In this document: positions 1 to 24,038 of the stretch, in pieces
Position numbering within the stretch: the stretch's first letter is position 1
Layout: each line of letters begins with the position of its first letter
NCBI GenBank assembly: GCA_021205385.1
Contig: JAJPXQ010000003.1
Span: 812-64,811, forward strand
Origin: Lachnospiraceae bacterium
GTDB lineage: Bacteria > Bacillota > Clostridia > Lachnospirales > Lachnospiraceae
DNA: 64,000 nt
Direction: 5' to 3'
Position numbers and translations under genes: made by a program
Notes under the pieces: generated by a model
Told to the model about the DNA's origin: nothing
What the model saw: the letters and a program-made list of their open reading frames with translations, nothing else
Database searches by the model: none

Positions 1-201
1 ATTGATAAAAAAACACTGCATGAAGAAATGTTGGCATGCCTGAAGCAGAGAAGGCTGACACAAAAGAAAAATGAGATAATTGACACAGTACCATATGAAC
101 TCAGGGCATACGCGTATTTTACGAAAAACTGTAGTTGTGACCTGATTAATCAGTTTTGTAAAAGAAAAGTGGAGGGGAAAAATGTATTATCCGTATCTTA
201 G
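1..201 (+). CDS. C-terminal part of a gene running in from the left edge; probable sce7726-family protein
   Basis: Frame 1 is open from base 1 to TAG at 199-201 (IDKKTLHEEMLACLKQRR...VPYELRAYAYF...). It overlaps the next start by 20 nt. The family call rests on the usual sce7726-sce7725 adjacency and the VPxELxxxxYF tail; the N-terminus is outside the window. Confidence 0.55.
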   Translation: MDKKTLHEEMLACLKQRRLTQKKNEIIDTVPYELRAYAYFTKNCSCDLINQFCKRKVEGKNVLSVS

Positions 202-1153
202 GGGGAGACAAAATGAACTGTTTTGCCTGCGGGAGTTGTTAAGGGCAGAGCGACTGAGCCGGGATATTGTCCCGATTATTGAGCCGGTAAGATTTAGCAA
301 AGTATTGGTGGATACATTGCAGGATTTTCTGGAGGCCGGGCGAAGTATTGCGTTGATCCGAAATCCGAAAGTGGGCACATTCATGAAAGAATATTATGAA
401 AGCCAGAGGGAAATTCAGGAAGAATCGGATGAAAAGAAAAAAAATGATCTGCAGGAAAAAATGAAGCATTACTTTTCAGTTATAAACGATGAGCGGATTA
501 TTTGCGCTTATATTAATGATGCTTCGATTACAGATGCCATAGTGTCAGGTAGACTAAAAGCGAATGAAAGCTTTATCCTGAATACAAAAAAAGATACTTA
601 CGATCTATATTATGATAAGTTGAATCAAATCAGCGCACGTATGACGTTTATCCCGAAGGACGAGGATTTCAAGGACGAAGTGTGCGGTGATGTATCCCTT
701 CTGGAGAATAGTTTTGTGAAGGCCAAAAGAAATAAAGACTATATCCAAAAAGAAGATGAATTTTTCAGCATGAATCATCTTATATATCGGAAACGGGGCT
801 ATCAGGGATTCTCCGATTATTCTATTGTTGGGGATGAATATGAGGAGAGCGGATTTGCACCTGCTGCGGTGGCGATTCATATAGTCTATTTTGACGAGAG
901 AAAGCAACTTCGGGTTCATCATTTTGTTTCCGATACGAACGATTCGATTTTCGACCCTGCTCGTAAATTTGGGGAGGCAATGGAAAAACTGGTGAGATGG
1001 ATGAGTCAGGGGGAAACTGCACCGACATTGGGAATTACCAATCTGGTGGACTATTATGAGAAAGGGAAGTTTCCGGGGTTGGGGGTAATCAAGAGGTGTT
1101 CCATGATGCATCACCTCGAATTGCTGACAAATTATTTGGAGGAGAATAGATGA
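182..1153 (+). CDS. sce7725-family protein (uncharacterised, Beta-protein-like)
   Basis: 323 aa. N-terminal MYYPYLRGRQNEL, internal FSDYSIVGDEY, VAIHIVYF and HHFVSD, and C-terminal GLGVIKRCSMMHHLEL match my recollection of the sce7725 family. RBS GGAGGGG upstream. Confidence 0.75.
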   Translation: MYYPYLRGRQNELFCLRELLRAERLSRDIVPIIEPVRFSKVLVDTLQDFLEAGRSIALIRNPKVGTFMKEYYESQREIQEESDEKKKNDLQEKMKHYFSVINDERIICAYINDASITDAIVSGRLKANESFILNTKKDTYDLYYDKLNQISARMTFIPKDEDFKDEVCGDVSLLENSFVKAKRNKDYIQKEDEFFSMNHLIYRKRGYQGFSDYSIVGDEYEESGFAPAAVAIHIVYFDERKQLRVHHFVSDTNDSIFDPARKFGEAMEKLVRWMSQGETAPTLGITNLVDYYEKGKFPGLGVIKRCSMMHHLELLTNYLEENR

Positions 1154-2229
1154 TTTGTTGTGCAAATTGTTTTTCAGATATAGAGATAAAGGCTGTAATC
1201 GATAGCATAGGACGCGTGGGAGACTGCCCGGTTTGCGGAGCAAAGAATGTTTCGTTATATGACAGTGATGCGGATGCTGATGAATCAGAATTTGAAGAAT
1301 TGTTGTCATCGATTATTGAGATATATCAACCGGATGATTTGCTGGGGAAAAATGTTCCTTCGAAGGCCAGGAAGCCAATAGAGCTACATATCGCGGAGGA
1401 TTGGAATCTTTTTAACGTAGAACCTGACAAAATAAAGAGCATTATATCGTTTGTTATACAAAATTCTCTTACGCTGGATCAAAGATTGTTGACACAGAAA
1501 TGTGCAATCAAAGAGTTATTTGATGAGCAATATATGTCCGAAAACTCGATCATGGGAAGTTATTCGTGGGAAGATTTTAAAATATATATGAGAAATCAGA
1601 ACCGGTTTCACAGCAGACATGTTCATCTTGATATTTTCGCAAAGTTAGTAAAAGACACGGAAACAATTTTGCCACGGGGAGAAAAGTATTATCGTGCGCG
1701 TATAGCATCGGATAGGGTGGGTCACAAAAGAAAGAATATGGGTGCGCCGCCAAAGGATGTTGCGACAGCAGGAAGGGTCAATTCAAAAGGCGTGAGTTGT
1801 CTGTACCTGGCGGATAAAAAGGAAACAACTGTGAAAGAAATCCGCGCGGGGGCATTTGACTATGTGACGATTGCTACATTCAGATTAAAACGGGATGTTA
1901 AGGTTTTAGATTTAAGTTCGATAACACATAATTCACCTTTCTATGCGCCGACTGATAAGAAGTATTTTTATATAAATGAGCGGCATTTGAAAAAGATAGC
2001 GATGGACATAGCCAAGCCGATGAGCAGTCATGACAGTGATCTGGAATATTTGCCGACACAGTATATCAGTGATTTCGCAAAATTTCTTGGTTATGATGGC
2101 GTTAAGTATATCAGTACATTTGATAAATCATCGTACAATCTGGCCCTATTCGATGTGGATGCTTGCGATTGTATATACCATAGAACATATCGGATTGGTA
2201 ATCTGAATTATGAGTTGATACCTGGTTGA
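1150..2229 (+). CDS. RES-domain protein (NAD+ phosphorylase-like toxin fold) with N-terminal Zn-ribbon-like domain
   Basis: YYRARI (R), GRVNSKGVSCLYLA, ETTVKEIR (E), YLPTQYISDF and GVKYIS (S) form the RES triad. N-terminal CxxC...CxxC. ATGA overlap with the upstream stop. Confidence 0.85.
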   Translation: MICCANCFSDIEIKAVIDSIGRVGDCPVCGAKNVSLYDSDADADESEFEELLSSIIEIYQPDDLLGKNVPSKARKPIELHIAEDWNLFNVEPDKIKSIISFVIQNSLTLDQRLLTQKCAIKELFDEQYMSENSIMGSYSWEDFKIYMRNQNRFHSRHVHLDIFAKLVKDTETILPRGEKYYRARIASDRVGHKRKNMGAPPKDVATAGRVNSKGVSCLYLADKKETTVKEIRAGAFDYVTIATFRLKRDVKVLDLSSITHNSPFYAPTDKKYFYINERHLKKIAMDIAKPMSSHDSDLEYLPTQYISDFAKFLGYDGVKYISTFDKSSYNLALFDVDACDCIYHRTYRIGNLNYELIPG

Positions 2230-2276
2230 GGGATATGAGGGAAGAATACCTGGAAAAGAATGGCGGAGTATAAGAG

Positions 2277-4793
2277 ATGGCAGAGCTTAGCTTAAAGCAG
2301 ATAACTGACAAATTAAATACAGAGTTCTTCGGCGAGGCCCGCAGGCTGATCTTCTGGTACGACGCCAACGCGGAGTTCGTCGGGGATGTGGACTTTCTTG
2401 CGTTGGAGAATGCCAAAGTTTATCATCTGGAGCCGGACAACCAGTTTTACACGAAATATTTTCTGGAGTGCGTGGATACGACGACGAATTATCTGATCTA
2501 CGCGCCCTTTGCGAAGCCTGCCATTCGAGACAATCATCTCGCGGATACGATTCGGTATTCGGGAGAATTTTTTGCGGATCGCGCTTCTCTGCTGACACTG
2601 GATCTGGGTATCGACGAGCGTTATAAGCCGGTGATTCAGCAATATATCAGGTTTTTCGGGGAGCAGCGCCGCATGCAGGCGTTCTATGACCTGGGATTGG
2701 AGACGTACAACCGAAATACGATTGAGGTTGCTCTGATGAGCGTTCTGTGCAAATGTAAGACGTCCTCCTTTGAGGAGGTGCTGCGGACGGTTCTCACGGA
2801 GGGCGGCTTCGAGGAGAATCCTTATCTTGCGGATTTCGCGCGTTTTGATCTTCTGGACGCTTTCTGGCGGCAGGTTTCCGACGTCTTCGGCTATGCGGAT
2901 GAAAAGCCCTCCCTGGAGAAGCTTGCCATGACCCTGTTTGTGACGTATACGGACAGAGCGATCAGTGCAGAGCTTCCGGCTGCGTGGAGACCGTTTACCA
3001 GCTTTAAGTCCGGAAATATTACGGCGTTTCTGGACAGCCTGATGAACAGTTATCTCTATGAGGAGCGTTTTGATGAAATTTCCGCGCAGATCTATGAAAG
3101 TCTGAAGGGAGAGACGGAATTTTCCAGGCTGCCGATCGAGTCGCTGGTTTCCTGCGGGATTTTTGCCGGGATCGACGAGCTGCTGATCCGATGGGTCACG
3201 GAGCGCCTGGAGCTGGAGGACGTGGGGGCGAAGCTGAACGGAATTACGATTCCGGAACTGGTGAAAGTGCGCCGTCAGGGACATTTTGGCAGGCAGCGCC
3301 GTTTTGAATATTTTGTACTGGAAAATGCGTGGTATCTTATTTCCGGGATGTCGTATACGGCGGCAGACAGCCTGAATGAGCTGGTAAAGAATTACACGGG
3401 GTCCCTCTATCAGATGGATCGCCATTATCGCTATTTTTATTATAATCTGGACAAGCTGGAGGACAGCGAGCGCTTCGCCGCTTTAAGGGAGCTGGTGGAA
3501 AATATCTATGCCAATGAATATCTGGCGAAGATCTGCACGAACTGGACAGAGCTGTTTCCCGCGCAGGCGGATTCGCTGAAGATCGCGGTGCAGCCGGACT
3601 TTTTCGAGCAGAACGTAAATTATACGAAGGAGCAGCTGGTCGTCATTATTTCCGACGCTTTGCGCTATGAAGTGGGGGTGAGCCTGTTTGAGAAATTGCA
3701 GGCGGATGAAAAGTGCAGCGCTTCCATCAAGGTGATGGCGAGTACCCTGCCGTCTGTGACGGAATACGGTATGGTCGCGCTGCTGCCGCACCGGGAGCTT
3801 ACGTTGAGCGAAGATTATTCTGCCCTGGTCGATGGGCAGAAGACGGATAAGCTCGAACAGAGACAGGCGATTTTGCAACAGTATAAGAAAGCGAGCCGCT
3901 GCGTTCAGTATGACGACATCAAGGGTCTGAGCGTGGCGGATCTGCGTGCCATCTTTACCTGGCAGGAGGTCGTGTATGTCTACCACAATCAGATCGACGC
4001 CAGAGGCGACAAGCTGAGCACGGAAAATGAAGTATTTCAGGCCTGTGAGGAAGCGGTCGAGGAGATCAGCTCGCTGATCCGGCGCCTGACGACGAGCGCG
4101 AACCGCTCGCGTTTCATCGTGACGGCGGATCATGGTTTCTTATATCGCAGAAATAAGCTGACGGAGAGTGATAAAATTGCCTCCGCCGCGGGGGACGGCA
4201 GCAGAGTGGCGCGGCGCTACATATTGTCGGAGAATGGCGTCGCCGCGGATGGTGTCACTTCGATGGAGATCGGCTTGATGATGAAAAATACGGACAGGCG
4301 CATGGTCTCCTGTCCGGTGGGCGCGGATATTTTCAGGGCGCCCGGCTCCGGCTTCAATTATGTGCATGGTGGCTGCTCCCCGCAGGAGATGCTGGTGCCG
4401 GTGATCGAGGTGAAGACCGAGAAGGGCTACAAAGAGACGACGACTGCGCAGATTGCGCTGGTGAGCCTGACTTCCAAGATCACAAATCTCATCACCTCTC
4501 TGGATTTCGTCCAGACAGATGCGGTCAGCGACGTCGTCAAGGAGACGACCTACCGGATTTATTTTGTAGCGGAAAATGGGGAAAAGATTTCCAATGAGCA
4601 CCTGTATGTGGCGGATAAAAAAGAAGCGGACGCCGTGAAGCGGATGTTCCGGTTACGCTTTTCTTTCAAAAATAAAAAATATGACAGGACGCAGAAATAT
4701 TATCTGGTGGCCTGTGATGAGAACAACGCACTGGAAGTCCTGAGACACGAGGTCGTGATGGACATTGCCTTTGCAGATGATTTTGGATTTTGA
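2277..4793 (+). CDS. pglZ: BREX-1 system phosphatase PglZ (type A)
   Basis: 838 aa. RLIFWYD N-terminus, IISDALRYE, LPSVTEYGMVALLP, VYHNQID, IVTADHGF and YVHGGCSPQEMLVP alkaline-phosphatase-like PglZ motifs. Directly upstream of brxL. Confidence 0.92.
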   Translation: MAELSLKQITDKLNTEFFGEARRLIFWYDANAEFVGDVDFLALENAKVYHLEPDNQFYTKYFLECVDTTTNYLIYAPFAKPAIRDNHLADTIRYSGEFFADRASLLTLDLGIDERYKPVIQQYIRFFGEQRRMQAFYDLGLETYNRNTIEVALMSVLCKCKTSSFEEVLRTVLTEGGFEENPYLADFARFDLLDAFWRQVSDVFGYADEKPSLEKLAMTLFVTYTDRAISAELPAAWRPFTSFKSGNITAFLDSLMNSYLYEERFDEISAQIYESLKGETEFSRLPIESLVSCGIFAGIDELLIRWVTERLELEDVGAKLNGITIPELVKVRRQGHFGRQRRFEYFVLENAWYLISGMSYTAADSLNELVKNYTGSLYQMDRHYRYFYYNLDKLEDSERFAALRELVENIYANEYLAKICTNWTELFPAQADSLKIAVQPDFFEQNVNYTKEQLVVIISDALRYEVGVSLFEKLQADEKCSASIKVMASTLPSVTEYGMVALLPHRELTLSEDYSALVDGQKTDKLEQRQAILQQYKKASRCVQYDDIKGLSVADLRAIFTWQEVVYVYHNQIDARGDKLSTENEVFQACEEAVEEISSLIRRLTTSANRSRFIVTADHGFLYRRNKLTESDKIASAAGDGSRVARRYILSENGVAADGVTSMEIGLMMKNTDRRMVSCPVGADIFRAPGSGFNYVHGGCSPQEMLVPVIEVKTEKGYKETTTAQIALVSLTSKITNLITSLDFVQTDAVSDVVKETTYRIYFVAENGEKISNEHLYVADKKEADAVKRMFRLRFSFKNKKYDRTQKYYLVACDENNALEVLRHEVVMDIAFADDFGF

Positions 4794-4814: not shown

Positions 4815-6878
4815 ATGGACGAATTTACCGAGAAGGACGACGCCCGGCTGGTTGTGAAAAACAAGCTCCGCCAGTATTTTGACGGCCGCATCGTCCGCAA
4901 GGACCTGACGAAGCGCATCAAGGAGGGAGCGAACGTTCCGGTCTATGTGCTGGAGTTCCTGCTGGGGCAGTATTGCAGTTCGGACGACGAGGAGATTATC
5001 GAGGAAGGCGTGAACAATGTCAAACGAATCCTTGCCGACAACTTTGTGCGTCCGGACGAGGCGCAGAAGGTTCTCTCAATTCTGCGGGAGCGCGGCAGTT
5101 ATACGGTGATCGACAAGATTACCGTACAGCTGAATATCAAAGAAGACCGCTACGAGGCGGAATTCTCCAATCTGGGGATCAAGAAGATTCCGATCCATCC
5201 GGATTACCCGTCCAAATATGACCGCCTGCTGTGCGGCGGGATCTGGTGCATCCTGCAGCTGGAGTACGAGTTTGTCGAGGAGGACAAGAGGAATACTTCT
5301 CCGATCCATATCCGCAAGCTGACGCCGATCCAGATGCCGCACATCGACATGGACGAGGTGAAAAACGGTCGGAAAGCCTTCACGAAGGAGGAGTGGATTG
5401 ACGTGCTGCTGCGCTCCACGGGTATGGAGCCGGAGAAATTCAACGATCGCGTGAAATGGCTGCTTCTGGCGCGCATGATTCCGCTGGTGGAGAATAATTT
5501 TAATCTCTGCGAGCTGGGACCGCGCAGCACCGGAAAATCGCATATTTATAAAGAAATATCGCCGAACAGCATCCTGATCTCCGGCGGACAGACGACGGTC
5601 GCGAACCTGTTTTACAATATGTCCACGAAGACGGTCGGCCTGGTGGGGATGTGGGACTGTGTGGCTTTCGACGAGGTGGCGGGCATCACCTTCAAGGACA
5701 AGGACGGCGTCCAGATCATGAAGGATTACATGGCGTCCGGCTCCTTCGCCAGAGGACGTGAGGAGAAGGCGGCGTCGGCCTCCATGGTTTTCGTGGGAAA
5801 TATCAATCAGAGTGTGGACGTGCTGCAGAAGACATCTCATCTCTTTGAGCCATTTCCCACGGCGATGGCCTATGATACCGCATTCCTTGACAGGATGCAC
5901 TGCTATATTCCTGGCTGGGAGATCCCGAAGTATCGCCCGGAATTTTTCACCGACGACTATGGTTTTATCACGGATTATCTGTCCGAGTTTATGCGTCAGA
6001 TGCGCAAGGAAAATTTCGGGGACGCAGCGGATCGGTATTTCCGATTCGGGAGCAACCTGAACCAGCGCGACACGATCGCCGTGCGTAAGATGGTGTCCGG
6101 CTTTGTGAAGCTGGTCTATCCGGACGGCGAGGTGAACAAGGAGGAAATGCGGGAAATCCTCGATATTTCTCTGGAGCTGCGCCGTCGCGTCAAGGAGCAG
6201 CTGAAAAAGATCGGTGGCATGGAGTTTTATGACGTCAATTTCTCCTACATAGACAATGAGAGCTTCGAGGAGAGCTATGTTTCCGTTCCGGAGCATGGCG
6301 GCGGTAAGTTGATTCCGGAGGGGATGAACAAGCCGGGGCACATTTATACCGTTTCCCACAGCCGCAGCGGGCTGCTGGGCGTGTATCGCCTGGAGACACA
6401 GGTACTGCCCGGAAACGGAAAGTTCGAGCGCACCGGTCTGGGGACTGATCGGGATGCGAAAGAAGCGACCAACACGGCTTTTAATTTCCTGAAAGCGAAC
6501 AGCAACACGATCTCCGCGTCGATCAGCACGACGACAAAGGATTATATTATCAATTATCAGGATCTGCAGGGCATCGGTATGACAAAGAATCTGGCGCTGT
6601 CGACGCTGATCGCGATCTGCTCGGCCTCTCTGGGGAAACCGACACTGAGTAGCCTGGCGGTATTGGGTGAGATCAGTATCAGCGGCACACTGATCAAAGT
6701 GAGTGAGCTGGGAAGTGTGCTCCAGGTGTGTTTGGACAGTGGGGCGAAGAAGGTGCTATTGCCGATCACGTCCGCCGCGGATCTGGGGACGGTGCCGTCT
6801 GAACTGGTGGGCGCGTTTAGTCTGATTTTTTACTCTACGCCGCAGGAGGCGATATTCAAGGCGCTGGGGGTAGAGTGA
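4815..6878 (+). CDS. brxL: Lon-like BREX protein BrxL
   Basis: 687 aa. YVLEFLLGQYC, Walker A ELGPRSTGKSH, VAFDEVAG, DYMASGSFARG and a C-terminal Lon-like domain (VLGEISISG, GAKKVLLP). Confidence 0.95.
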   Translation: MDEFTEKDDARLVVKNKLRQYFDGRIVRKDLTKRIKEGANVPVYVLEFLLGQYCSSDDEEIIEEGVNNVKRILADNFVRPDEAQKVLSILRERGSYTVIDKITVQLNIKEDRYEAEFSNLGIKKIPIHPDYPSKYDRLLCGGIWCILQLEYEFVEEDKRNTSPIHIRKLTPIQMPHIDMDEVKNGRKAFTKEEWIDVLLRSTGMEPEKFNDRVKWLLLARMIPLVENNFNLCELGPRSTGKSHIYKEISPNSILISGGQTTVANLFYNMSTKTVGLVGMWDCVAFDEVAGITFKDKDGVQIMKDYMASGSFARGREEKAASASMVFVGNINQSVDVLQKTSHLFEPFPTAMAYDTAFLDRMHCYIPGWEIPKYRPEFFTDDYGFITDYLSEFMRQMRKENFGDAADRYFRFGSNLNQRDTIAVRKMVSGFVKLVYPDGEVNKEEMREILDISLELRRRVKEQLKKIGGMEFYDVNFSYIDNESFEESYVSVPEHGGGKLIPEGMNKPGHIYTVSHSRSGLLGVYRLETQVLPGNGKFERTGLGTDRDAKEATNTAFNFLKANSNTISASISTTTKDYIINYQDLQGIGMTKNLALSTLIAICSASLGKPTLSSLAVLGEISISGTLIKVSELGSVLQVCLDSGAKKVLLPITSAADLGTVPSELVGAFSLIFYSTPQEAIFKALGVE

Positions 6879-6930: not shown

Positions 6931-7080
6931 ATGTTCTCAAACTTTGACGAGCCGACCAGACAGATGTTGACAGGGAATATTTTGATGGTCATATGCTGTG
7001 CCTTTTATCTTGCATGGTGGCAGTTACGGTCAGCGTGGCTGTTCGGGGAAGATGAGATTCTGACATGGCTGGAGAAATAG
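6931..7080 (+). pseudogene. Short ORF (49 aa), probably a truncated membrane-protein remnant
   Basis: RBS GGAGAGG, then MFSNFDEPTRQMLTGNILMVICCAFYLAWW.... One hydrophobic helix, then it runs into the GNAT start. Below the ORF track cutoff. Confidence 0.35.
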
Positions 7081-7670
7081 TTGAGAAGCTGGGACTGGAT
7101 GAACTGAAACGGATCTACAGGGATCATGTACGGGAGGATTTTCCCCGCAGCGAGCGCCGCCCCTTCTCTTCTATGAAACGTATGACGAAGGCAGGAAAAT
7201 ATGCCTGTTATGGCTATTATGATAATGGCAGCCTGCTGGCGTATGCCTGTTACATTCTTACAGAGAATGGGATGTATGCGCTTCTGGATTATTTTGCAGT
7301 TGTTCCCGGACTGCGCGGTCATGGAGTCGGCAGTGAGTTCCTGCAGCGCCTGAAAAATGTGGCGCCGGTGAAATGCGGCGTTTTCATCGAGGCGGAGAGC
7401 CCTGATTCGGCAAAGACAGACGAGGAAGTACAGCTCCAGAAGAGACGGATCGGTTTTTATCTTGCAAACGGCGCCTTGCTGACAAACTCAAAGTGCCTGC
7501 TGTTCGGTGTGGATTACAATATTCTGTATATCAGCCAAACGGTTTCGGCTCATTCAATGGAGCAGCTGCATTGTGCGGTGGAGGAGATGTATCGGGAAAT
7601 CTACCGTCCGGTCTATGGTCGTTTGTGTAAGCCTTACGCAGTTGAATACGAAAAACAGGTGGGGAAATGA
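7065..7670 (+). CDS. GNAT-family N-acetyltransferase
   Basis: LLDYFAVVPGLRGHGVGSEFL acetyl-CoA motif A; IEAE...RRIGFYLANG. Confidence 0.85.
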   Translation: MAGEIVEKLGLDELKRIYRDHVREDFPRSERRPFSSMKRMTKAGKYACYGYYDNGSLLAYACYILTENGMYALLDYFAVVPGLRGHGVGSEFLQRLKNVAPVKCGVFIEAESPDSAKTDEEVQLQKRRIGFYLANGALLTNSKCLLFGVDYNILYISQTVSAHSMEQLHCAVEEMYREIYRPVYGRLCKPYAVEYEKQVGK

Positions 7671-7695
7671 TTGACCCCGGCAGAAGAGAGATAAA

Positions 7696-8562
7696 ATGAG
7701 AACAAATAATATCGCTATTTTTGAAGACACTTTAACCATTGCCAGACAAGGCCATTATCTCTACGATGGCATAGAGATACCACTGCAGATTTCTGCGGAG
7801 CAGATGACGGAGGTGCAGGCATTCTCCCCGGAGAGGATTCCGCAGCTTGCGAATGAAGAAGACCGTGCCGGAAGACCGCTTGGTGTTCATGAGAATATTC
7901 GGACCTGGGTCAGCGGGCGTGATTCCTATGAGGCTGCAATCGAAATGTTGAAAAGCGTTCCTGCAGGCTCGAATGAGAAGCCCGGCGTTCTGGTGCTGAA
8001 TTTCGCCAATCCGGTCCATCCGGGAGGCGGCGTGACGAGAGGCGCCAGCGCGCAGGAGGAGGATCTGTGCAGGAGAAGTACGCTGTATCTTTCCCTGACG
8101 AGCAGGGCGGCCGGAGAGATGTACCGGTATAACGCGGCTTTGAAGGGCTATTGTGCGTCAGATTTCATGCTGCTTTCCCCTTATGTGGAAATCCTGAAGG
8201 ACAGTGAGGGAATGTCTTTGCCTGAGACATACGTTGTCTCGGTTATGACTGCTGCGGCTCCGATGGTATCCCGCGGCGGGATCGAGAAAGGCAGGCTGCA
8301 CGACCTTTTGACACAACGAATCCATGCGATCTTTCAGGTAGCAGCCCACTGCGGTTATCGGAACCTGGTACTCGGCGCATGGGGTTGCGGCGCGTTTGGG
8401 AACGATCCGGAGACGATGGCGACGCTGTTCGCACAGGAAGTAAAGCGCTGGAACGATGTGGGCAGTTTCCGTTTTCGGCAGATCGAGTTTGCGGTTCTGC
8501 GAAAAAAGAACCGAGACTCCTATAATTATGATTGTTTTGCCAGGCATTTTGCGGAGAAATAA
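7696..8562 (+). CDS. TIGR02452/DUF2263-family protein (microbial PARG-type macrodomain)
   Basis: VLNFANPVHPGGG..RGASAQEEDLCRRSTLY PARG signature (GGG-x6-8-QEE); LVLGAWGCGAFGNDP. Confidence 0.9.
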   Translation: MRTNNIAIFEDTLTIARQGHYLYDGIEIPLQISAEQMTEVQAFSPERIPQLANEEDRAGRPLGVHENIRTWVSGRDSYEAAIEMLKSVPAGSNEKPGVLVLNFANPVHPGGGVTRGASAQEEDLCRRSTLYLSLTSRAAGEMYRYNAALKGYCASDFMLLSPYVEILKDSEGMSLPETYVVSVMTAAAPMVSRGGIEKGRLHDLLTQRIHAIFQVAAHCGYRNLVLGAWGCGAFGNDPETMATLFAQEVKRWNDVGSFRFRQIEFAVLRKKNRDSYNYDCFARHFAEK

Positions 8563-8574
8563 AGAAGGAATGAA

Positions 8575-9543
8575 ATGGATGAAGAACAGGCGAAACGGAT
8601 TCTTGGAATTACCGAAAATGACAATGCGAGGACTGCGAAAATCAAGTTTCGCAGACTGATCGGCAGGTATCATCCGGATGCTGCAGGGGAGGTATCTTCC
8701 GATTTCCAGGAACAGGCGCAGAGAATTAATGCCGCTTATACTCTGCTCAAAAGCAAAGACTTCTTCCGGGGAAGAGAGGAAAAGGTGCTTCTGTGGAAAG
8801 CTCCGGTCAACGACGCCGCATTTGTCCCCAGAAATATCTACGCCCCGTACCATATGGATCTTGATACTGACGGAATGTATCAGGCCCTGGCCCGTGGAAA
8901 ATACATGTGGAACCCGGATGAGGAAGAATTCCCGCTGTTTTTACGCAGCCTCCTTCATGCCGGGAAGGATCTGCTGGATGAAGTGGAAAGCGAATGCGGT
9001 ATTTACGGAGGAACAGATGCTTTGCGTATTCCTTTCCAGAAGCAACTGTTCCATTGCCTCGCGCTGCAATTCGTGGACCCACTATACTGCCTTGAGAAAA
9101 TCGCAGAGCCGGAAGCGACCGATGAGGCAGGACGAAAGATTTACTGTTTCTGCGCTTACATCGGGGAAAAGCAGGACAGAGAGAGGATGAAACGGATACT
9201 TTCTCTTGGCAAAGGCGATACCGTATATCCGGCGTCGCTTCAAGACTGGAAACTCATGGTCGCGGATTCGCAGGGGAATGGCCTCGGACATATTTTTTTC
9301 GCGGAGGACGAGCTGTATTACTGCCTGTTTCCTCTTATGCGCGCGCACTTGATACAGACGAAAATGACGGTCGTCAGAATACAGCGAAACAAGGGAAGCT
9401 ATCTGCGCCAGGTAAAAGCGGAAGTCACATTTCGGATACGGATGGAGAAGGAGACGGAACATTATCGGAACCCGGACAGGAACCGGGAAATCAGACAGAT
9501 TTTGTCTGCGTACAGAAGAGAAATTACCGGGCATAGAGGATGA
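8575..9543 (+). CDS. DnaJ (J)-domain protein with uncharacterised C-terminal region
   Basis: N-terminal ILGI...KFRRLIGRYHPD...QRINAAYTLL J-domain with HPD motif. Confidence 0.8.
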   Translation: MDEEQAKRILGITENDNARTAKIKFRRLIGRYHPDAAGEVSSDFQEQAQRINAAYTLLKSKDFFRGREEKVLLWKAPVNDAAFVPRNIYAPYHMDLDTDGMYQALARGKYMWNPDEEEFPLFLRSLLHAGKDLLDEVESECGIYGGTDALRIPFQKQLFHCLALQFVDPLYCLEKIAEPEATDEAGRKIYCFCAYIGEKQDRERMKRILSLGKGDTVYPASLQDWKLMVADSQGNGLGHIFFAEDELYYCLFPLMRAHLIQTKMTVVRIQRNKGSYLRQVKAEVTFRIRMEKETEHYRNPDRNREIRQILSAYRREITGHRG

Positions 9544-9582: not shown

Positions 9583-9870
9583 ATGAAAGCAAAATCAGAG
9601 GTAAGTCAGGAATTGTATCAGATGATGCTGGACAGAGGGTATCAGGAGCGGTTCTGCGATCTGGTCACGCAGAATCTGAATACGGATTTCACTGCGCAGA
9701 GAATGATCTATTATCTTTCTCATTACAGCACCCTGCCGGAAGGGGAGATCGTGGACGAGATGCTTGCAATCCTCGACGATAGGAAGCGGATCATGCAGAA
9801 AAAGCAGTTGGAGCACAGCAATGCGGTATATAACGAGTATTTAAACCGTAGAAGAATGGAAGAAGACTGA
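9583..9870 (+). CDS. Hypothetical protein (95 aa)
   Basis: Clean ORF in the co-directional run, with a plausible start after the repeat. No recognisable motif. Confidence 0.7.
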   Translation: MKAKSEVSQELYQMMLDRGYQERFCDLVTQNLNTDFTAQRMIYYLSHYSTLPEGEIVDEMLAILDDRKRIMQKKQLEHSNAVYNEYLNRRRMEED

Positions 9871-9871
9871 A

Positions 9872-10157
9872 ATGAAGCTTAAAAATGTACTGATTGTGGC
9901 CAAGGATATAGAAAAGTCAAAGCAGTTTGAATATTGTGTTTGACAGTGATGAAACTGTGATTCTGACAGAAGGTCTGGTGCTTCAGGACGAAAAAGTCTG
10001 GAAGCTGGAGCAGCTTTATCCTGTAGTCAAATATGTCAATAGATTGGCAGCATACAACTGGGGTCAGAAAATGGTGCGCTTTTATGACCCGGATGGGAAT
10101 CTGATTGAAGTAAGGACGCCGACACAATCCCGGGCAGACAAAGGAAGTGTGACATAG
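9872..10157 (+). pseudogene. Glyoxalase/VOC-family gene broken by a frameshift and internal deletions
   Basis: MKLKNVLIVAKDIEKSKQF in one frame continues as ...ILTEGLVLQDEKVWK/LEQLYP..YVNRL..YNWGQKMVRFYDPDGNLIEV in another. The typical middle segments are missing. Confidence 0.75.
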
Positions 10158-10277
10158 TTTTAAACTGTCATCGGCGGAAACTTTTAGAACAGCTGCATCG
10201 GGAGCAAAGAAAAATTGACTGTTTGGATTACCTTAGTTATCAGATGGAAAGAGAAAGCAGGGAGTGAATTACATAAT

Positions 10278-10835
10278 ATGGTTAAAAGAATTTTATTCGC
10301 TGTTTTGATGGGTATTGTGCTGTTTTCCCTGGCTGCCTGCGGAAACTCACAGGAGGTGGAAGAATCCACTGGAGTGTCTTCGACGGAAATGGAAAATATC
10401 GAAGAAGCAGTAGAGGAGAGTGGAGGAAATGGGAAGGAAGAAACCGTGTCAGAATCGGAAACAGAGAACCTGGAGCAGGAGGAGGCTATGAAAATGAATG
10501 TTCAAATTGGAAGCAGCACCTTTACCGCGACACTCGAAAGCAATGAGGCAGTAGATGCGCTTGTCGAGATGATGGAGAACGGTCCGGTTACAATCAGTAT
10601 GAGCGATTATTCCGGATTTGAAAAAGTGGGTGCTCTGGGAACAAGTCTGCCGACAAGCGATTATCAGATGACGACGCAGGCGGGTGATATTGTGCTGTAT
10701 AACGGAGATCAGATTGTCATCTTTTATGGATCCAACTCCTGGAGCTATACCAGGCTGGGGAAGATTGACGATCTGACCGGATGGGAAGAGGTACTCGGCA
10801 CCGGGAATGTAGAAGTAACATTTTCCCTGGACTGA
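10278..10835 (+). CDS. Lipoprotein with cyclophilin-like fold
   Basis: Signal peptide with lipobox LAAC, acidic linker, then TATLESNEAVDAL..MSDYSGFEK..AGDIVLYNGDQIVIFYGSNSWSYTRLGKI. Start moved to MVKR (10278). Confidence 0.8.
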   Translation: MVKRILFAVLMGIVLFSLAACGNSQEVEESTGVSSTEMENIEEAVEESGGNGKEETVSESETENLEQEEAMKMNVQIGSSTFTATLESNEAVDALVEMMENGPVTISMSDYSGFEKVGALGTSLPTSDYQMTTQAGDIVLYNGDQIVIFYGSNSWSYTRLGKIDDLTGWEEVLGTGNVEVTFSLD

Positions 10836-20328: not shown

Positions 20329-20889
20329 TTATGCCAGATTGGCTTTGCGCAGCTGTCGGCGTATCTGCACGCCGAGGAACATGGCCACTGCGATCTTGCA
20401 GAGATCACCGATGATAAACGGAAATACACAGATGCCCAGCGCGTAGGCGACCGTGCAGTCCATCAGATAGACGAACCACGCGGTGCCGAGTGCGTAGCAG
20501 AGCGCCGTTGAAGCGACATAGGTGATGAAGTGCAGCGCGTATTTCTCCGGCCAGCGATCAATCACATAGCCGCCGATCAGCGCGATGAAGATGAAGCCGA
20601 TGAGGTAGCCTCCAGTCGGTCCCACGAGCTTTGCCGGCCCTCCGGCATAGCCTGAGAAGACCGGAAGCCCGACGAGTCCCAGCAGCAGATAGATCAGAAA
20701 GCTGATCGTCCCCTTCTTCATGCCGAGAATGTAGAGTGAGAGATAGATCACCAGATTCGTCAGGGAAATCGGAACCGGTCCGATGGGGATGGACATCGGA
20801 GCCAGGATGCACAGCAGTGCGGTAAAAATGGCGATCTTTGTCATATCGCGAACCTGAATCATTCCTGTTGCGGCAGTTTTCTTTTCCAT
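20329..20889 (-). CDS. bioY: Biotin transporter BioY (ECF S-component)
   Basis: [40 protein letters not shown]. Start MEKK at 20889 with RBS AAAGGA. Confidence 0.93.
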
Positions 20890-20916
20890 AGTAGAGAAGT
20901 TCCTTTCAGTCATGTT

Positions 20917-20973
20917 TTTAAATGTAAACCGTGTCGACGAAAGAAGTTTACATTTAAATTGCAGAAATGTCAA
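20917..20973 (-). promoter_or_regulatory. BirA operator overlapping the bioY promoter
   Basis: Perfect 13 bp arms tttaaatgtaaac-N16-gtttacatttaaa (20917-20958), matching the Firmicute BirA box TGTnAAC-N14-16-GTTnACA. Minus-strand TTGACA(20968-73), 17 nt, TAAACT(20945-50). Confidence 0.85.
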
Positions 20974-21064
20974 CCATTATTTTGCGTGGATTTATGAGGA
21001 GGCATGGTTTATAATCTTCAGTAAAGGAAATTCATTTTTGAAATGGGATGTGAGGAAGAACAGC

Positions 21065-21979
21065 ATGAAACGGATTGTGCTATACGGGATCATCGCGGTG
21101 CTGACCGTGGGGCTCCTGTCCGGCTGCAGCGGCAGCAGCGTGGATGACACGCAGGATGCGCCGGCGGAATCGAGCGTGCCGGAAGAGGGGTTGTCAGAAG
21201 AGGAGCCGCCGGAAGAGGAAGTGCCGGAAGCAGTTGAAATGGAGACCGTGGATGAAATTTCCATGGAAGAGGAAGTTGTCGAAGAGGATTATGAGGTTCC
21301 GGAGGAACCTGAGGTTGTGATTGAGGAAGAAACGCCTGCGGATGAGACGAACGGCTGCCTCGTCGTCATCGACGCCGGACATCAGCGGAGCGGCAACCCT
21401 GAGCAGGAGCCGATCGGTCCGGGGGCCACGGAGACGAAAGCAAAGGTCACCGGCGGCACCTCCGGTTCGGCCAGCGGACTGGCAGAGTATGAGCTGAATC
21501 TGCAGGTGGCGCTGAAACTGGAAGAGATATTGACGGAACGGGGCTATGAAGTCATCATGTGCCGAACGAGCAACGATGTGGATCTCAGCAACAGTGAGCG
21601 GGCGGCGATTGCCAACGAGGCCGGAGCGGATGCTTTCATCCGTATTCACGCGAATGGGTCGACGGATACGAGCGTGAACGGAGCGATGACGATCTGCCAG
21701 ACGGCTTCCAATCCATATAACGGCGATCTCTATGCACAGAGCCGTGCATTATCGGATGCAGTGCTGGACTGCTTTGTCGAGAAGACCGGCGCGAAGAAAC
21801 AGTATGTGTGGGAGACGGACACGATGAGCGGGATCAACTGGGCGAGCGTACCGGTGACGATCATAGAGATGGGCTACATGACCAATGCAGAGGAAGACCT
21901 GAAGATGGCGTCGGAAGAGTATCAGTATCTGATGGCAGAAGGAATGGCAGACGGGATTGATGAGTTCCTGCTCGACTGA
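21065..21979 (+). CDS. N-acetylmuramoyl-L-alanine amidase (Amidase_3), lipoprotein
   Basis: Lipobox LSGC, Glu-rich linker, [34 protein letters not shown]. Start MKRI at 21065. Confidence 0.92.
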
Positions 21980-21993
21980 CGGGGCATTCCGTC

Positions 21994-22022
21994 TTGACCA
22001 TGCCGATACGGTTTGTTACACT
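21994..22022 (+). promoter_or_regulatory. Candidate sigma-A promoter of udp-deoB
   Basis: TTGACC, 17 nt, TACACT. Confidence 0.55.
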
Positions 22023-22053
22023 TGAAAACAGGAATGACGGGAGAAATGAGGAA

Positions 22054-22820
22054 ATGAAAAATTATTCAGAAGATCCGACGAGACAGTACCACATTCAGGT
22101 GGCGAAGGGCGAGGTGGGACGCTATGTCATCCTGCCCGGCGACCCGAAGCGCTGCGCAAAGATCGCGCAGTATTTTGACGAGCCGCAGCTGATTGCCGAC
22201 AATCGTGAATTTATCACCTATACGGGCACGCTGGACGGCGTAAAGGTCAGCGTGACTTCGACGGGAATCGGCGGGCCTTCAGCCTCGATCGCGCTGGAGG
22301 AGCTGGTGAACTGCGGGGCGGACACGTTTCTGCGCGTTGGTACCTGCGGAGGTATGCAGACGGAAGTGGAGAGCGGAGACTTGGTGATCGCGCAGGCAGC
22401 GATCCGCATGGAAGGCACGAGCCGGGAGTATGCGCCGATTGAATTTCCTGCGGTGGCGGATTTTGACGTTACAGGCGCGCTCTGTAAAGCGGCGAAAAGT
22501 CTGGGAGCGCGTGCGCATGTGGGCGTAGTACAGTGCAAGGATTCCTTCTACGGGCAGCATTCTCCGGAGACGAAGCCGGTGAGTTATGAACTGTTGAATA
22601 AATGGGAAGCGTGGAAACGCCTCGGCTGTCTGGCTTCTGAGATGGAGTCGGCGGCGCTGTTTGTCGCAGCGAGTGCGCTGCGCGTGCGGGTTGGAAGCGT
22701 CTTTCTGGTGATGGCCAATCAGGAGCGGGAGAGGCTGGGGCTTTCGAATCCGGTGGTGCACGACACGGATCTGGCGGTGCGGACGGCTGTGGAGGCTCTG
22801 CGGGAACTGATCCGGCTGTA

Positions 22821-22821
<1 letters not shown>
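22054..22821 (+). CDS. udp: Uridine phosphorylase
   Basis: [42 protein letters not shown]. Confidence 0.92.

Positions 22822-24038
<1,217 letters not shown>

Follow-up and report, generated by a model that had tools for sequence, protein, structure and literature searches.

What are three overlapping genes of foreign composition doing directly ahead of pglZ and brxL, two genes of a type 1 BREX (bacteriophage exclusion) system: are they part of that system, a separate defence carried within it, or an addiction module? The genes stand at the start of a 64,000-nucleotide (nt) stretch of DNA from Lachnospiraceae bacterium (GenBank assembly GCA_021205385.1, contig JAJPXQ010000003.1, positions 812 to 64,811 of the forward strand), hereafter the window; they belong to the sce7726, sce7725 and RES families, and we call them ORF1, ORF2 and ORF3 (open reading frames 1–3), together the cassette or trio. 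The cassette is a real, non-chance feature, and we consider it probable that it is a mobile, self-contained three-gene abortive-infection module against phages, carried as cargo in the slot between pglX and pglZ of a type 1 BREX locus. It is not categorically new, because two of its parts are homologous to one validated system, Gop-beta-cII of phage P4, while the family of the third is built like another validated one, the aRES proteins.

Direct reading of the sequence agrees with the physical description in a note made earlier from the letters of the window (the original prediction). ORF1 and ORF2 overlap by 20 nt, the stop codon of ORF2 and the start codon of ORF3 share an ATGA at 1150–1153, and the cassette ends 47 nt before pglZ, while the GGAGG-type ribosome-binding sites of ORF2 and ORF3 each sit inside the preceding gene. 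The trio is also more AT-rich than the BREX genes, as had been claimed: its GC content is 39.9% (38–45% at third codon positions), compared with 52.4% (67%) for pglZ and 54.5% (73%) for brxL, and the remaining 54 kb of the window stand at 49.8%. In composition the trio is foreign to the BREX genes; we regard it as horizontally acquired. A scan of the 47-nt spacer between ORF3 and pglZ found no promoter-like and no terminator-like site, and the trio is probably read through into pglZ–brxL.

The third gene is the candidate effector. ORF3 matches the RES profile PF08808 (5.9e-14, residues 201–343) and begins with a four-cysteine zinc ribbon of the form CCxxC...CxxC. Across 38 sequences of its family, R182, R184, E230, S322, C7 and C26 are invariant; because R182/R184, E230 and S322 are among these residues we regard the Arg-Glu-Ser triad of the RES domain as intact. 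The profile PF18870 (HEPN_RES_NTD1) is matched by 27 of the 38 family members, with a best E-value of 7.7e-9, which points to the two-domain architecture PF18870 + PF08808 of aRES proteins. As defined by the Sorek laboratory, aRES proteins combine PF18870 with RES in 300–600 amino acids (aa), and from nicotinamide adenine dinucleotide (NAD+) they produce nicotinamide and ADP-ribose-1''-phosphate, causing growth arrest and phage defence (Osterman et al. 2026, bioRxiv 10.64898/2026.01.28.702374). In RefSeq the orthologous genes are named 'sce7726 family protein / sce7725 family protein / RES family NAD+ phosphorylase'. BLASTP found no similarity between ORF3 and Gop, a sequence search of the PDB with the ORF3 family profile returned nothing significant, and neither ORF2 nor ORF3 has hydrophobic (membrane) segments.

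The window starts inside the first gene, which we extended with a contig from Logan (L001; L numbers are our labels for the contigs and loci compared) that is identical to window positions 1–1491 over 1,491 nt and adds 563 nt, giving a 253-aa fragment. This fragment matches NF033832 (sce7726_fam) at 6.1e-50 and 169.7 bits, against a curated cut-off of 70, and the PADLOC 'cll' model PDLC02989, which belongs to Gop-beta-cII, at 3.6e-15. BLASTP aligns it with P4 cII at 28% identity over 176 residues (E = 2e-11), and its homologues carry PF26915 (Phage_P4_cII), a recent Pfam family. By these matches ORF1 is a clear homologue of phage P4 cII. In the family alignment D62, E74 and K76 are invariant and form a D...ExK motif, which lies in the stretch ADFV...VYEIKTDLD and is kept in P4 cII as ADLA...AFEIKSDFD; because of this motif we suggest a putative restriction-endonuclease-like core of the PD-(D/E)xK type. 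Proteins of the ORF1 type are ~285 aa long, and neither ORF1 nor ORF2 shows a helix-turn-helix domain in Pfam searches. A related domain also occurs in another setting: 5 kb upstream of a complete trio on a gut Lachnospiraceae contig, a 353-aa protein (L006 4298–5359) joins a GIY-YIG nuclease to a Phage_P4_cII domain.

The second gene required more indirect comparisons. ORF2 matches NF033831 (sce7725_fam) end to end at 1.9e-94 and 316.9 bits, where the curated cut-off is 60, so that all three family assignments of the original prediction held, and the family comprises 1,418 clusters at 50% identity (E ≤ 1e-3). When 38 sce7725 proteins were compared with 36 Beta proteins by profile-profile alignment (hhalign), the match between the two families had a probability of 72% and E = 3.5e-5 and was confined to 32 columns at the N-terminus (YYPxLRxRxxEL...IxPxI); the global mode gave no alignment, and a relaxed local mode gave a full-length one of low confidence. 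The AlphaFold2 model of ORF2 (pLDDT, the predicted local distance difference test, 87.6; pTM, the predicted template modelling score, 0.88) and that of P4 Beta (90.7 and 0.90) share one order of elements, in which ~7 strand-helix units lead to a beta hairpin and the chain closes with three helices. They also agree in their best match in the viral structure library BFVD, the Gordonia phage Powerball protein A0A5J6TRS2, with E = 6e-8 and template modelling (TM) scores of 0.58/0.51 for sce7725 and E = 1e-13 and 0.70/0.66 for Beta, and for both the runners-up are weaker by orders of magnitude. These comparisons suggest that ORF2 is a remote relative of P4 Beta, even though BLASTP of ORF2 against P4 Beta found nothing. 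A fold search of the PDB with the sce7725 model gave weak TIM-barrel matches only (E ≥ 5e-3, TM ~0.3), and because of this weakness the predicted beta/alpha, TIM-barrel-like fold class is tentative; a PDB sequence search with the family profile gave nothing significant. The family alignment holds many invariant Arg, His, Asp and Asn residues, and for that reason we speculate that the sce7725 protein may be an enzyme rather than a passive binder. Proteomics on clinical Escherichia coli isolates revealed a sce7725 family protein that correlated with aminoglycoside resistance, no explanation being offered (PMC8203672); the family is therefore expressed.

Whether the three genes form a unit of their own was assessed across the 80 best genome loci with a sce7725 relative (40–61% identity), which come from Lachnospiraceae, Paenibacillus, Bacillus, Streptococcus, Megasphaera and others. 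A cII-like gene lies directly upstream of sce7725 in all 80, and a full-length zinc-ribbon/RES gene lies directly downstream in ~74, at gene-to-gene distances of −35 to +12 nt except for four gaps of 44–440 nt at the sce7725–RES junction. PglZ or BrxL was found within 10 kb in none of the 80, and all 45 loci that could be compared for long flanks have unrelated flanking sequence. At ~31% identity the trio, with RES still alignable at full length, is present on plasmids of Moraxella, Pseudorhizobium, Shinella and Rhizobium and on a Ralstonia megaplasmid, as well as in a Salmonella houtenae integrative conjugative element and an unverified 'bacteriophage' contig; seven of the nine loci at this distance hold the full trio. 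The trio thus ranges over Bacillota and Alpha-, Beta- and Gammaproteobacteria, and over this range the identity of RES falls from 65% to 26% in step with sce7725, a co-divergence of effector and partner.

In E. coli, again at ~31% identity, the trio occurs in 19 of 5,426 complete genomes. The copy of E. coli MS 115-1 (L188; WP_000986374, WP_000291755 and WP_000598935) sits next to the fim operon, in an integrase/relaxase element that is riddled with insertion sequences and also holds, beside the trio, a KwaB-like gene and a truncated subunit of an EcoR124-type type I restriction system (9740–10633 and 20822–22837). The Lachnospiraceae copies lie in an integrase–RepA–relaxase element, and PMC9394441 mentions members of these three families on an integrative mobilizable element of Pseudomonas aeruginosa. 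That the trio is an autonomous, mobile and self-contained operon is strongly supported by these observations, and in this the original prediction, which had called it a self-contained module, was right. On one further contig (L002 7744–15126) the trio is followed immediately by a 2,460-aa protein with matches to a DnaG zinc ribbon, Toprim and reverse transcriptase, and then by an HNH protein.

Copies in which the unit is breaking down are informative as to which gene goes first. L013 and L084 carry a truncated RES gene, L078 has lost it, and in L039 sce7725 is disrupted and RES shortened; the cII-like gene is intact in all four of these loci and sce7725 in all but L039. RES is thus lost first in decayed copies, as expected of a toxin. 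Elsewhere L043 has a different 548-aa ORF after a gap in place of RES, and the contig of L062 breaks off partway through RES. On the Enterococcus faecium plasmid p114-2 (L092 5306–7513) sce7725 is followed by a GNAT acetyltransferase gene and no RES, which may be another effector swap; the 229-aa protein encoded upstream is not detectably cII-like (0.5% probability). An unverified 'Listeria phage' contig (L183) likewise has sce7725 with no RES following.

The genes that follow the cassette are readily identified. PglZ matches TIGR02687 (1.4e-167), the PADLOC PglZ model (4.2e-300) and PF08665, and BrxL matches TIGR02653 and the PADLOC BrxL model (both E = 0) together with PF13337 and PF20442; by their profiles PglZ, of type A, and BrxL are typical type 1 BREX proteins. 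Upstream of the window only 563 nt could be retrieved, all of it ORF1; look-ups with the exact proteins returned just short contigs of a single sample, an exact 38-mer scan of metagenome contigs gave no match, and searches of sequencing runs for upstream sequence yielded none, or only 5–7% of words. We therefore turned to 80 metagenome loci with a PglZ 60–76% identical to that of the window, in which the gene order is BrxA–BrxB–BrxC–(small genes)–PglX–X–PglZ–BrxL. The pglX–pglZ interval holds 0.9–4.7 kb in 56 of the 58 loci with a full PglX and is closed to 9 nt in the other two, and at least 39 different gene arrangements occur among those 56. Representatives of the commonest cargo clusters give matches to AbiJ (7.5e-80), the PADLOC candidate PDC-S64 (8e-142) and an ATPase-Toprim protein of the OLD/AriA/GajA-like kind (1.3e-29); others match ApeA, a YaaC-like protein or a HEPN protein of the Cthe_2314 type, which has a SEC-C-motif partner, and some of the apparent cargo ORFs are PglX-related fragments. 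No trio gene is present in any of the 80 related BREX loci.

That this interval is a hotspot for accessory defence, as the original prediction had stated, agrees both with these loci and with Went et al. 2024 (PMC11341690), who found genes between pglX and pglZ in ~7,000 of 9,000 genomes, most of them not recognised as known defence and with BrxU and PARIS the commonest known. The embedded effectors covered by a 2026 survey of auxiliary effectors in BREX (PMC12839542) are nucleases only, and nowhere does its text mention 'NAD+', 'NADase' or 'RES domain'. The placement of the trio as cargo in the BREX pglX–pglZ slot is well supported by comparison: pglZ and brxL follow directly in the window and the slots of related loci are variable, and since the window starts inside ORF1 the pglX side of the predicted slot rests on those related loci. 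In many of the related BREX loci (L104–L175) PglX is shortened to ~870 aa, and behind it come small ORFs and a PglX-related ORF of 321 aa; 20 loci carry a 155–160-aa gene and a ~307-aa gene between brxC and pglX; both arrangements may reflect switching of PglX specificity.

Comparison with characterised systems shows which parts of the cassette are familiar and which are not. Gop-beta-cII gives protection from lambda and P1; in the absence of Beta, Gop is toxic, and the first description of Gop/Beta likened the two to a toxin-antitoxin pair (Rousset et al. 2022, PMC9122126). What sets off cell killing by the system is an accessory gene of the phage, orf184 (bioRxiv 10.1101/2023.04.06.535777). 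Like it, the cassette has three genes, appears to be toxin-based and resides on mobile elements, with a cII homologue that keeps D...ExK and an ORF2 that resembles Beta in size, N-terminal motif, order of secondary structure and best structural match. P4 Beta itself belongs to Pfam PF14350 (Beta_protein). In contrast, the toxin Gop is a 133-aa protein with two predicted membrane helices, two hydrophobic segments being present in Gop and Gop-like proteins alike, whereas the cassette encodes a 359-aa cytoplasmic zinc-ribbon/RES enzyme. In P. aeruginosa (L176–L179) the Gop-like/Beta/cII genes lie between those of a Pf-like filamentous prophage (Phage_Coat_B, DUF5447) and a HigB/HTH toxin-antitoxin pair.

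The likeness to aRES lies in the RES domain with its catalytic triad, a length within the aRES range and the PF18870 matches of the family, and the expected chemistry would be the same conversion of NAD+ with growth arrest. Unlike aRES, described as stand-alone, ORF3 closes a conserved operon whose three genes are translationally coupled, it carries the N-terminal zinc ribbon, and the protein of the window falls below the PF18870 threshold in hmmscan. The type II toxin-antitoxin systems Xre-RES, MbcT-MbcA and ParST likewise consist of a RES-domain, NAD+-consuming toxin restrained by a co-encoded protein; the cassette differs from them in having no Xre or DUF2384 antitoxin (Pfam and NCBIfam on ORF1 and ORF2), a long N-terminal extension of the toxin and two large partners of unrelated families. 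BrxU, a GmrSD protein (Picton 2021, PMC8565348), and PARIS (Went 2024, PMC11341690) provide the precedent for its position, each an independent second defence system carried as cargo in type 1 BREX upstream of pglZ, though they cleave DNA or tRNA whereas the cassette would deplete NAD+ with different proteins.

These comparisons suggest how the module might work. ORF3 would be the killing component, an aRES-type RES enzyme that, when activated, phosphorolyses NAD+ to nicotinamide and ADP-ribose-1''-phosphate, and the loss of NAD+ would starve the phage along with the cell it infects. Control would fall to the products of ORF1 and ORF2, homologous to P4 cII and Beta: the Beta-like sce7725 protein would keep the RES effector harmless in uninfected cells, as P4 Beta does for the membrane toxin Gop, and the cII-like sce7726 protein with its D...ExK motif would sense a phage product or nucleic acid and release the effector. 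In evolutionary terms, a Beta/cII-type pair would have exchanged Gop for a RES NADase, with all three genes placed in one translationally coupled unit. We infer the NAD+ depletion, the inhibitor and sensor roles, the trigger and any cooperation with BREX, including a back-up role for the cassette. A broader form of the proposal, which we put forward as possible and on balance doubtful, is that the Beta-like/cII-like pair serves generally as a portable module for sensing and control, able to be wired to unrelated killing domains (Gop in P4, RES here, perhaps GNAT in Enterococcus), in which the TIM-barrel-like Beta/sce7725 would be an enzyme that makes, destroys or modifies a small molecule or toxin, rather than a simple binding antitoxin.

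Several results weigh against this account. The kinship of ORF2 with Beta comes from a short motif and from indirect structural evidence, and although the sce7725, sce7726 and RES profiles proposed as checks in the original prediction all match, the fourth, PF14350, does not match ORF2, and neither do the PADLOC Beta models. The endonuclease-like core of ORF1 is inferred from its motif only, and a PDB sequence search with the ORF1 family profile gave nothing significant. The order of the genes differs as well, since P4 has gop followed by beta with a convergent cII, an arrangement kept in the P4, P. aeruginosa and Methylibium loci, and the cassette has cII-like, Beta-like and RES genes on one strand. 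The ORF3 of the window itself gives no hmmscan match to PF18870 at E ≤ 1. As for the defence-island enrichment that the original prediction proposed to survey around the trio, its immediate neighbours in 22 genomes are mixed, comprising type I specificity subunits, MADS genes, resolvases and integrases as well as housekeeping genes, with no clear defence island, and a PADLOC scan of 131 neighbour proteins was dominated by redundant type I specificity models and yields no enrichment figure. Finally, a literature search found no paper that assigns a function to sce7725, sce7726 or the trio, the mentions being annotation lists or the one proteomic detection. In PADLOC v2.0 the cII-like gene alone is recognised and no model covers the trio as a system. 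The earlier label 'uncharacterised' nevertheless goes too far: ORF1 is homologous to P4 cII, ORF2 is remotely related to P4 Beta, and the family of ORF3 is built like aRES, which makes the cassette a variation on known kinds.

The same evidence has to be set against other explanations. The trio could be a tripartite toxin-antitoxin or addiction module that stabilises its host mobile elements and plasmids, with RES as the toxin, one or both partners as antitoxin or regulator, and any phage defence incidental. Work cited in the aRES preprint treats RES proteins as classical toxins of type II toxin-antitoxin systems, the trio is found on plasmids and on integrative conjugative and mobilizable elements (including that of PMC9394441), Gop/Beta was itself first described in these terms (PMC9122126), and RES is what decayed copies lose. 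The classical Xre-RES form of this idea was rejected, as no Xre- or DUF2384-type antitoxin is present. The same absence, together with that of a Pfam helix-turn-helix in ORF1 and ORF2, also counts against the tripartite form; moreover the partners, at ~285 and 323 aa, are large and have invariant residues of an enzyme-like kind, in which they differ from simple antitoxins, both of the closest validated relatives (Gop-beta-cII and aRES) are anti-phage, and in related loci the slot of the cassette is filled by Abi-type defence genes. We judge an addiction role as the principal function unlikely, with the proviso that addiction and defence are not mutually exclusive.

The dependence of RES on its partners can be questioned from another side. 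aRES proteins work alone in E. coli and are not operonic (bioRxiv 10.64898/2026.01.28.702374), so partners may not be needed to control RES, which adds to the points against our proposal; ORF3 might then be an ordinary stand-alone aRES, and sce7726/sce7725 a separate two-gene system, for example a nuclease-based one, that merely travels with it. The shared two-domain build, the pairing of sce7725 with GNAT rather than RES on the E. faecium plasmid and the service of the homologous P4 pair to a different toxin all fit such an arrangement. It is difficult to reconcile with a near-obligate linkage through overlapping stop and start codons, in ~74 of 80 loci at 40–65% identity and in seven of nine at ~31% identity, with missing RES genes that are visibly truncated or deleted rather than absent by design, and with the co-divergence of RES and its partners from 65% to 26% identity, and we regard it as distinctly unlikely. 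Still less credible, to the point of being nearly dismissed, is the idea that the trio supplies this BREX with functional accessory subunits, like a lineage-specific BrxU-like or BrxR-like component, needed for it or tuned to it. They do share a strand and an apparent transcription unit with pglZ–brxL, with a 47-nt spacer and no terminator-like site. Against this stand the strong difference in GC content and the absence of co-occurrence in either direction (PglZ/BrxL within 10 kb at 0 of 80 trio loci; any trio gene at 0 of 80 related BREX loci), and on the latter the trio as part of BREX proper was rejected.

If the proposed abortive-infection module is real, its interest lies in what it connects. 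One operon, widespread in Bacillota and Proteobacteria, links two validated systems that were described separately: P4 Gop-beta-cII, whose mechanism is unexplained, and aRES. Should the partners indeed control RES, the trio would show cleanly how one effector can replace another on a sensor module that is itself conserved, the mechanism of Gop-beta-cII would become accessible through a soluble enzymatic read-out, with NAD+ loss as an assay for Beta and cII, and some 'stand-alone' aRES-type effectors would have a partner-controlled form. The cargo of the pglX–pglZ slot, documented mainly with nucleases so far, would gain a putative NAD+-depleting module. Since E. coli MS 115-1 has a near-identical, orthologous trio, the cassette lends itself well to experiment.

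Table. Features of the cassette and of the BREX genes that follow it, in window coordinates
Feature	Position	Strand	Basis or remark
3' end of ORF1 (66 codons), sce7726-family, phage P4 cII-like	1..201	+	frame 1 open from base 1, TAG at 199-201
Shine-Dalgarno GGAGG for ORF2, within the end of ORF1	171..175	+	direct reading; 6 nt before ATG at 182
ORF2, sce7725-family protein, 323 aa	182..1153	+	NF033831; remote P4 Beta relative (suggested)
Shine-Dalgarno GGAGGAG for ORF3, within the end of ORF2	1138..1144	+	direct reading
ORF3, 359 aa: zinc ribbon, helical middle region, C-terminal RES	1150..2229	+	PF08808
Spacer between ORF3 and pglZ, 47 nt, with GGAG at 2265-2268	2230..2276	+	direct reading
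pglZ (BREX type 1, PglZ type A), 838 aa; context, outside the cassette	2277..4793	+	TIGR02687, PADLOC PglZ, PF08665
brxL (Lon-like BREX protein), 687 aa; context	4815..6878	+	TIGR02653, PADLOC BrxL, PF13337, PF20442

Beyond these features, three genes lie directly 3' of brxL, at 7065–9543 of the window, and encode a GNAT acetyltransferase (201 aa), a microbial-type PARG protein resembling the TIGR02452 ADP-ribose hydrolases (288 aa) and a DnaJ-domain protein (322 aa). In GC content the three genes are like the host, and the PARG-like gene, with its predicted role in ADP-ribose processing, is located 5 kb from the putative NAD+ phosphorylase module.

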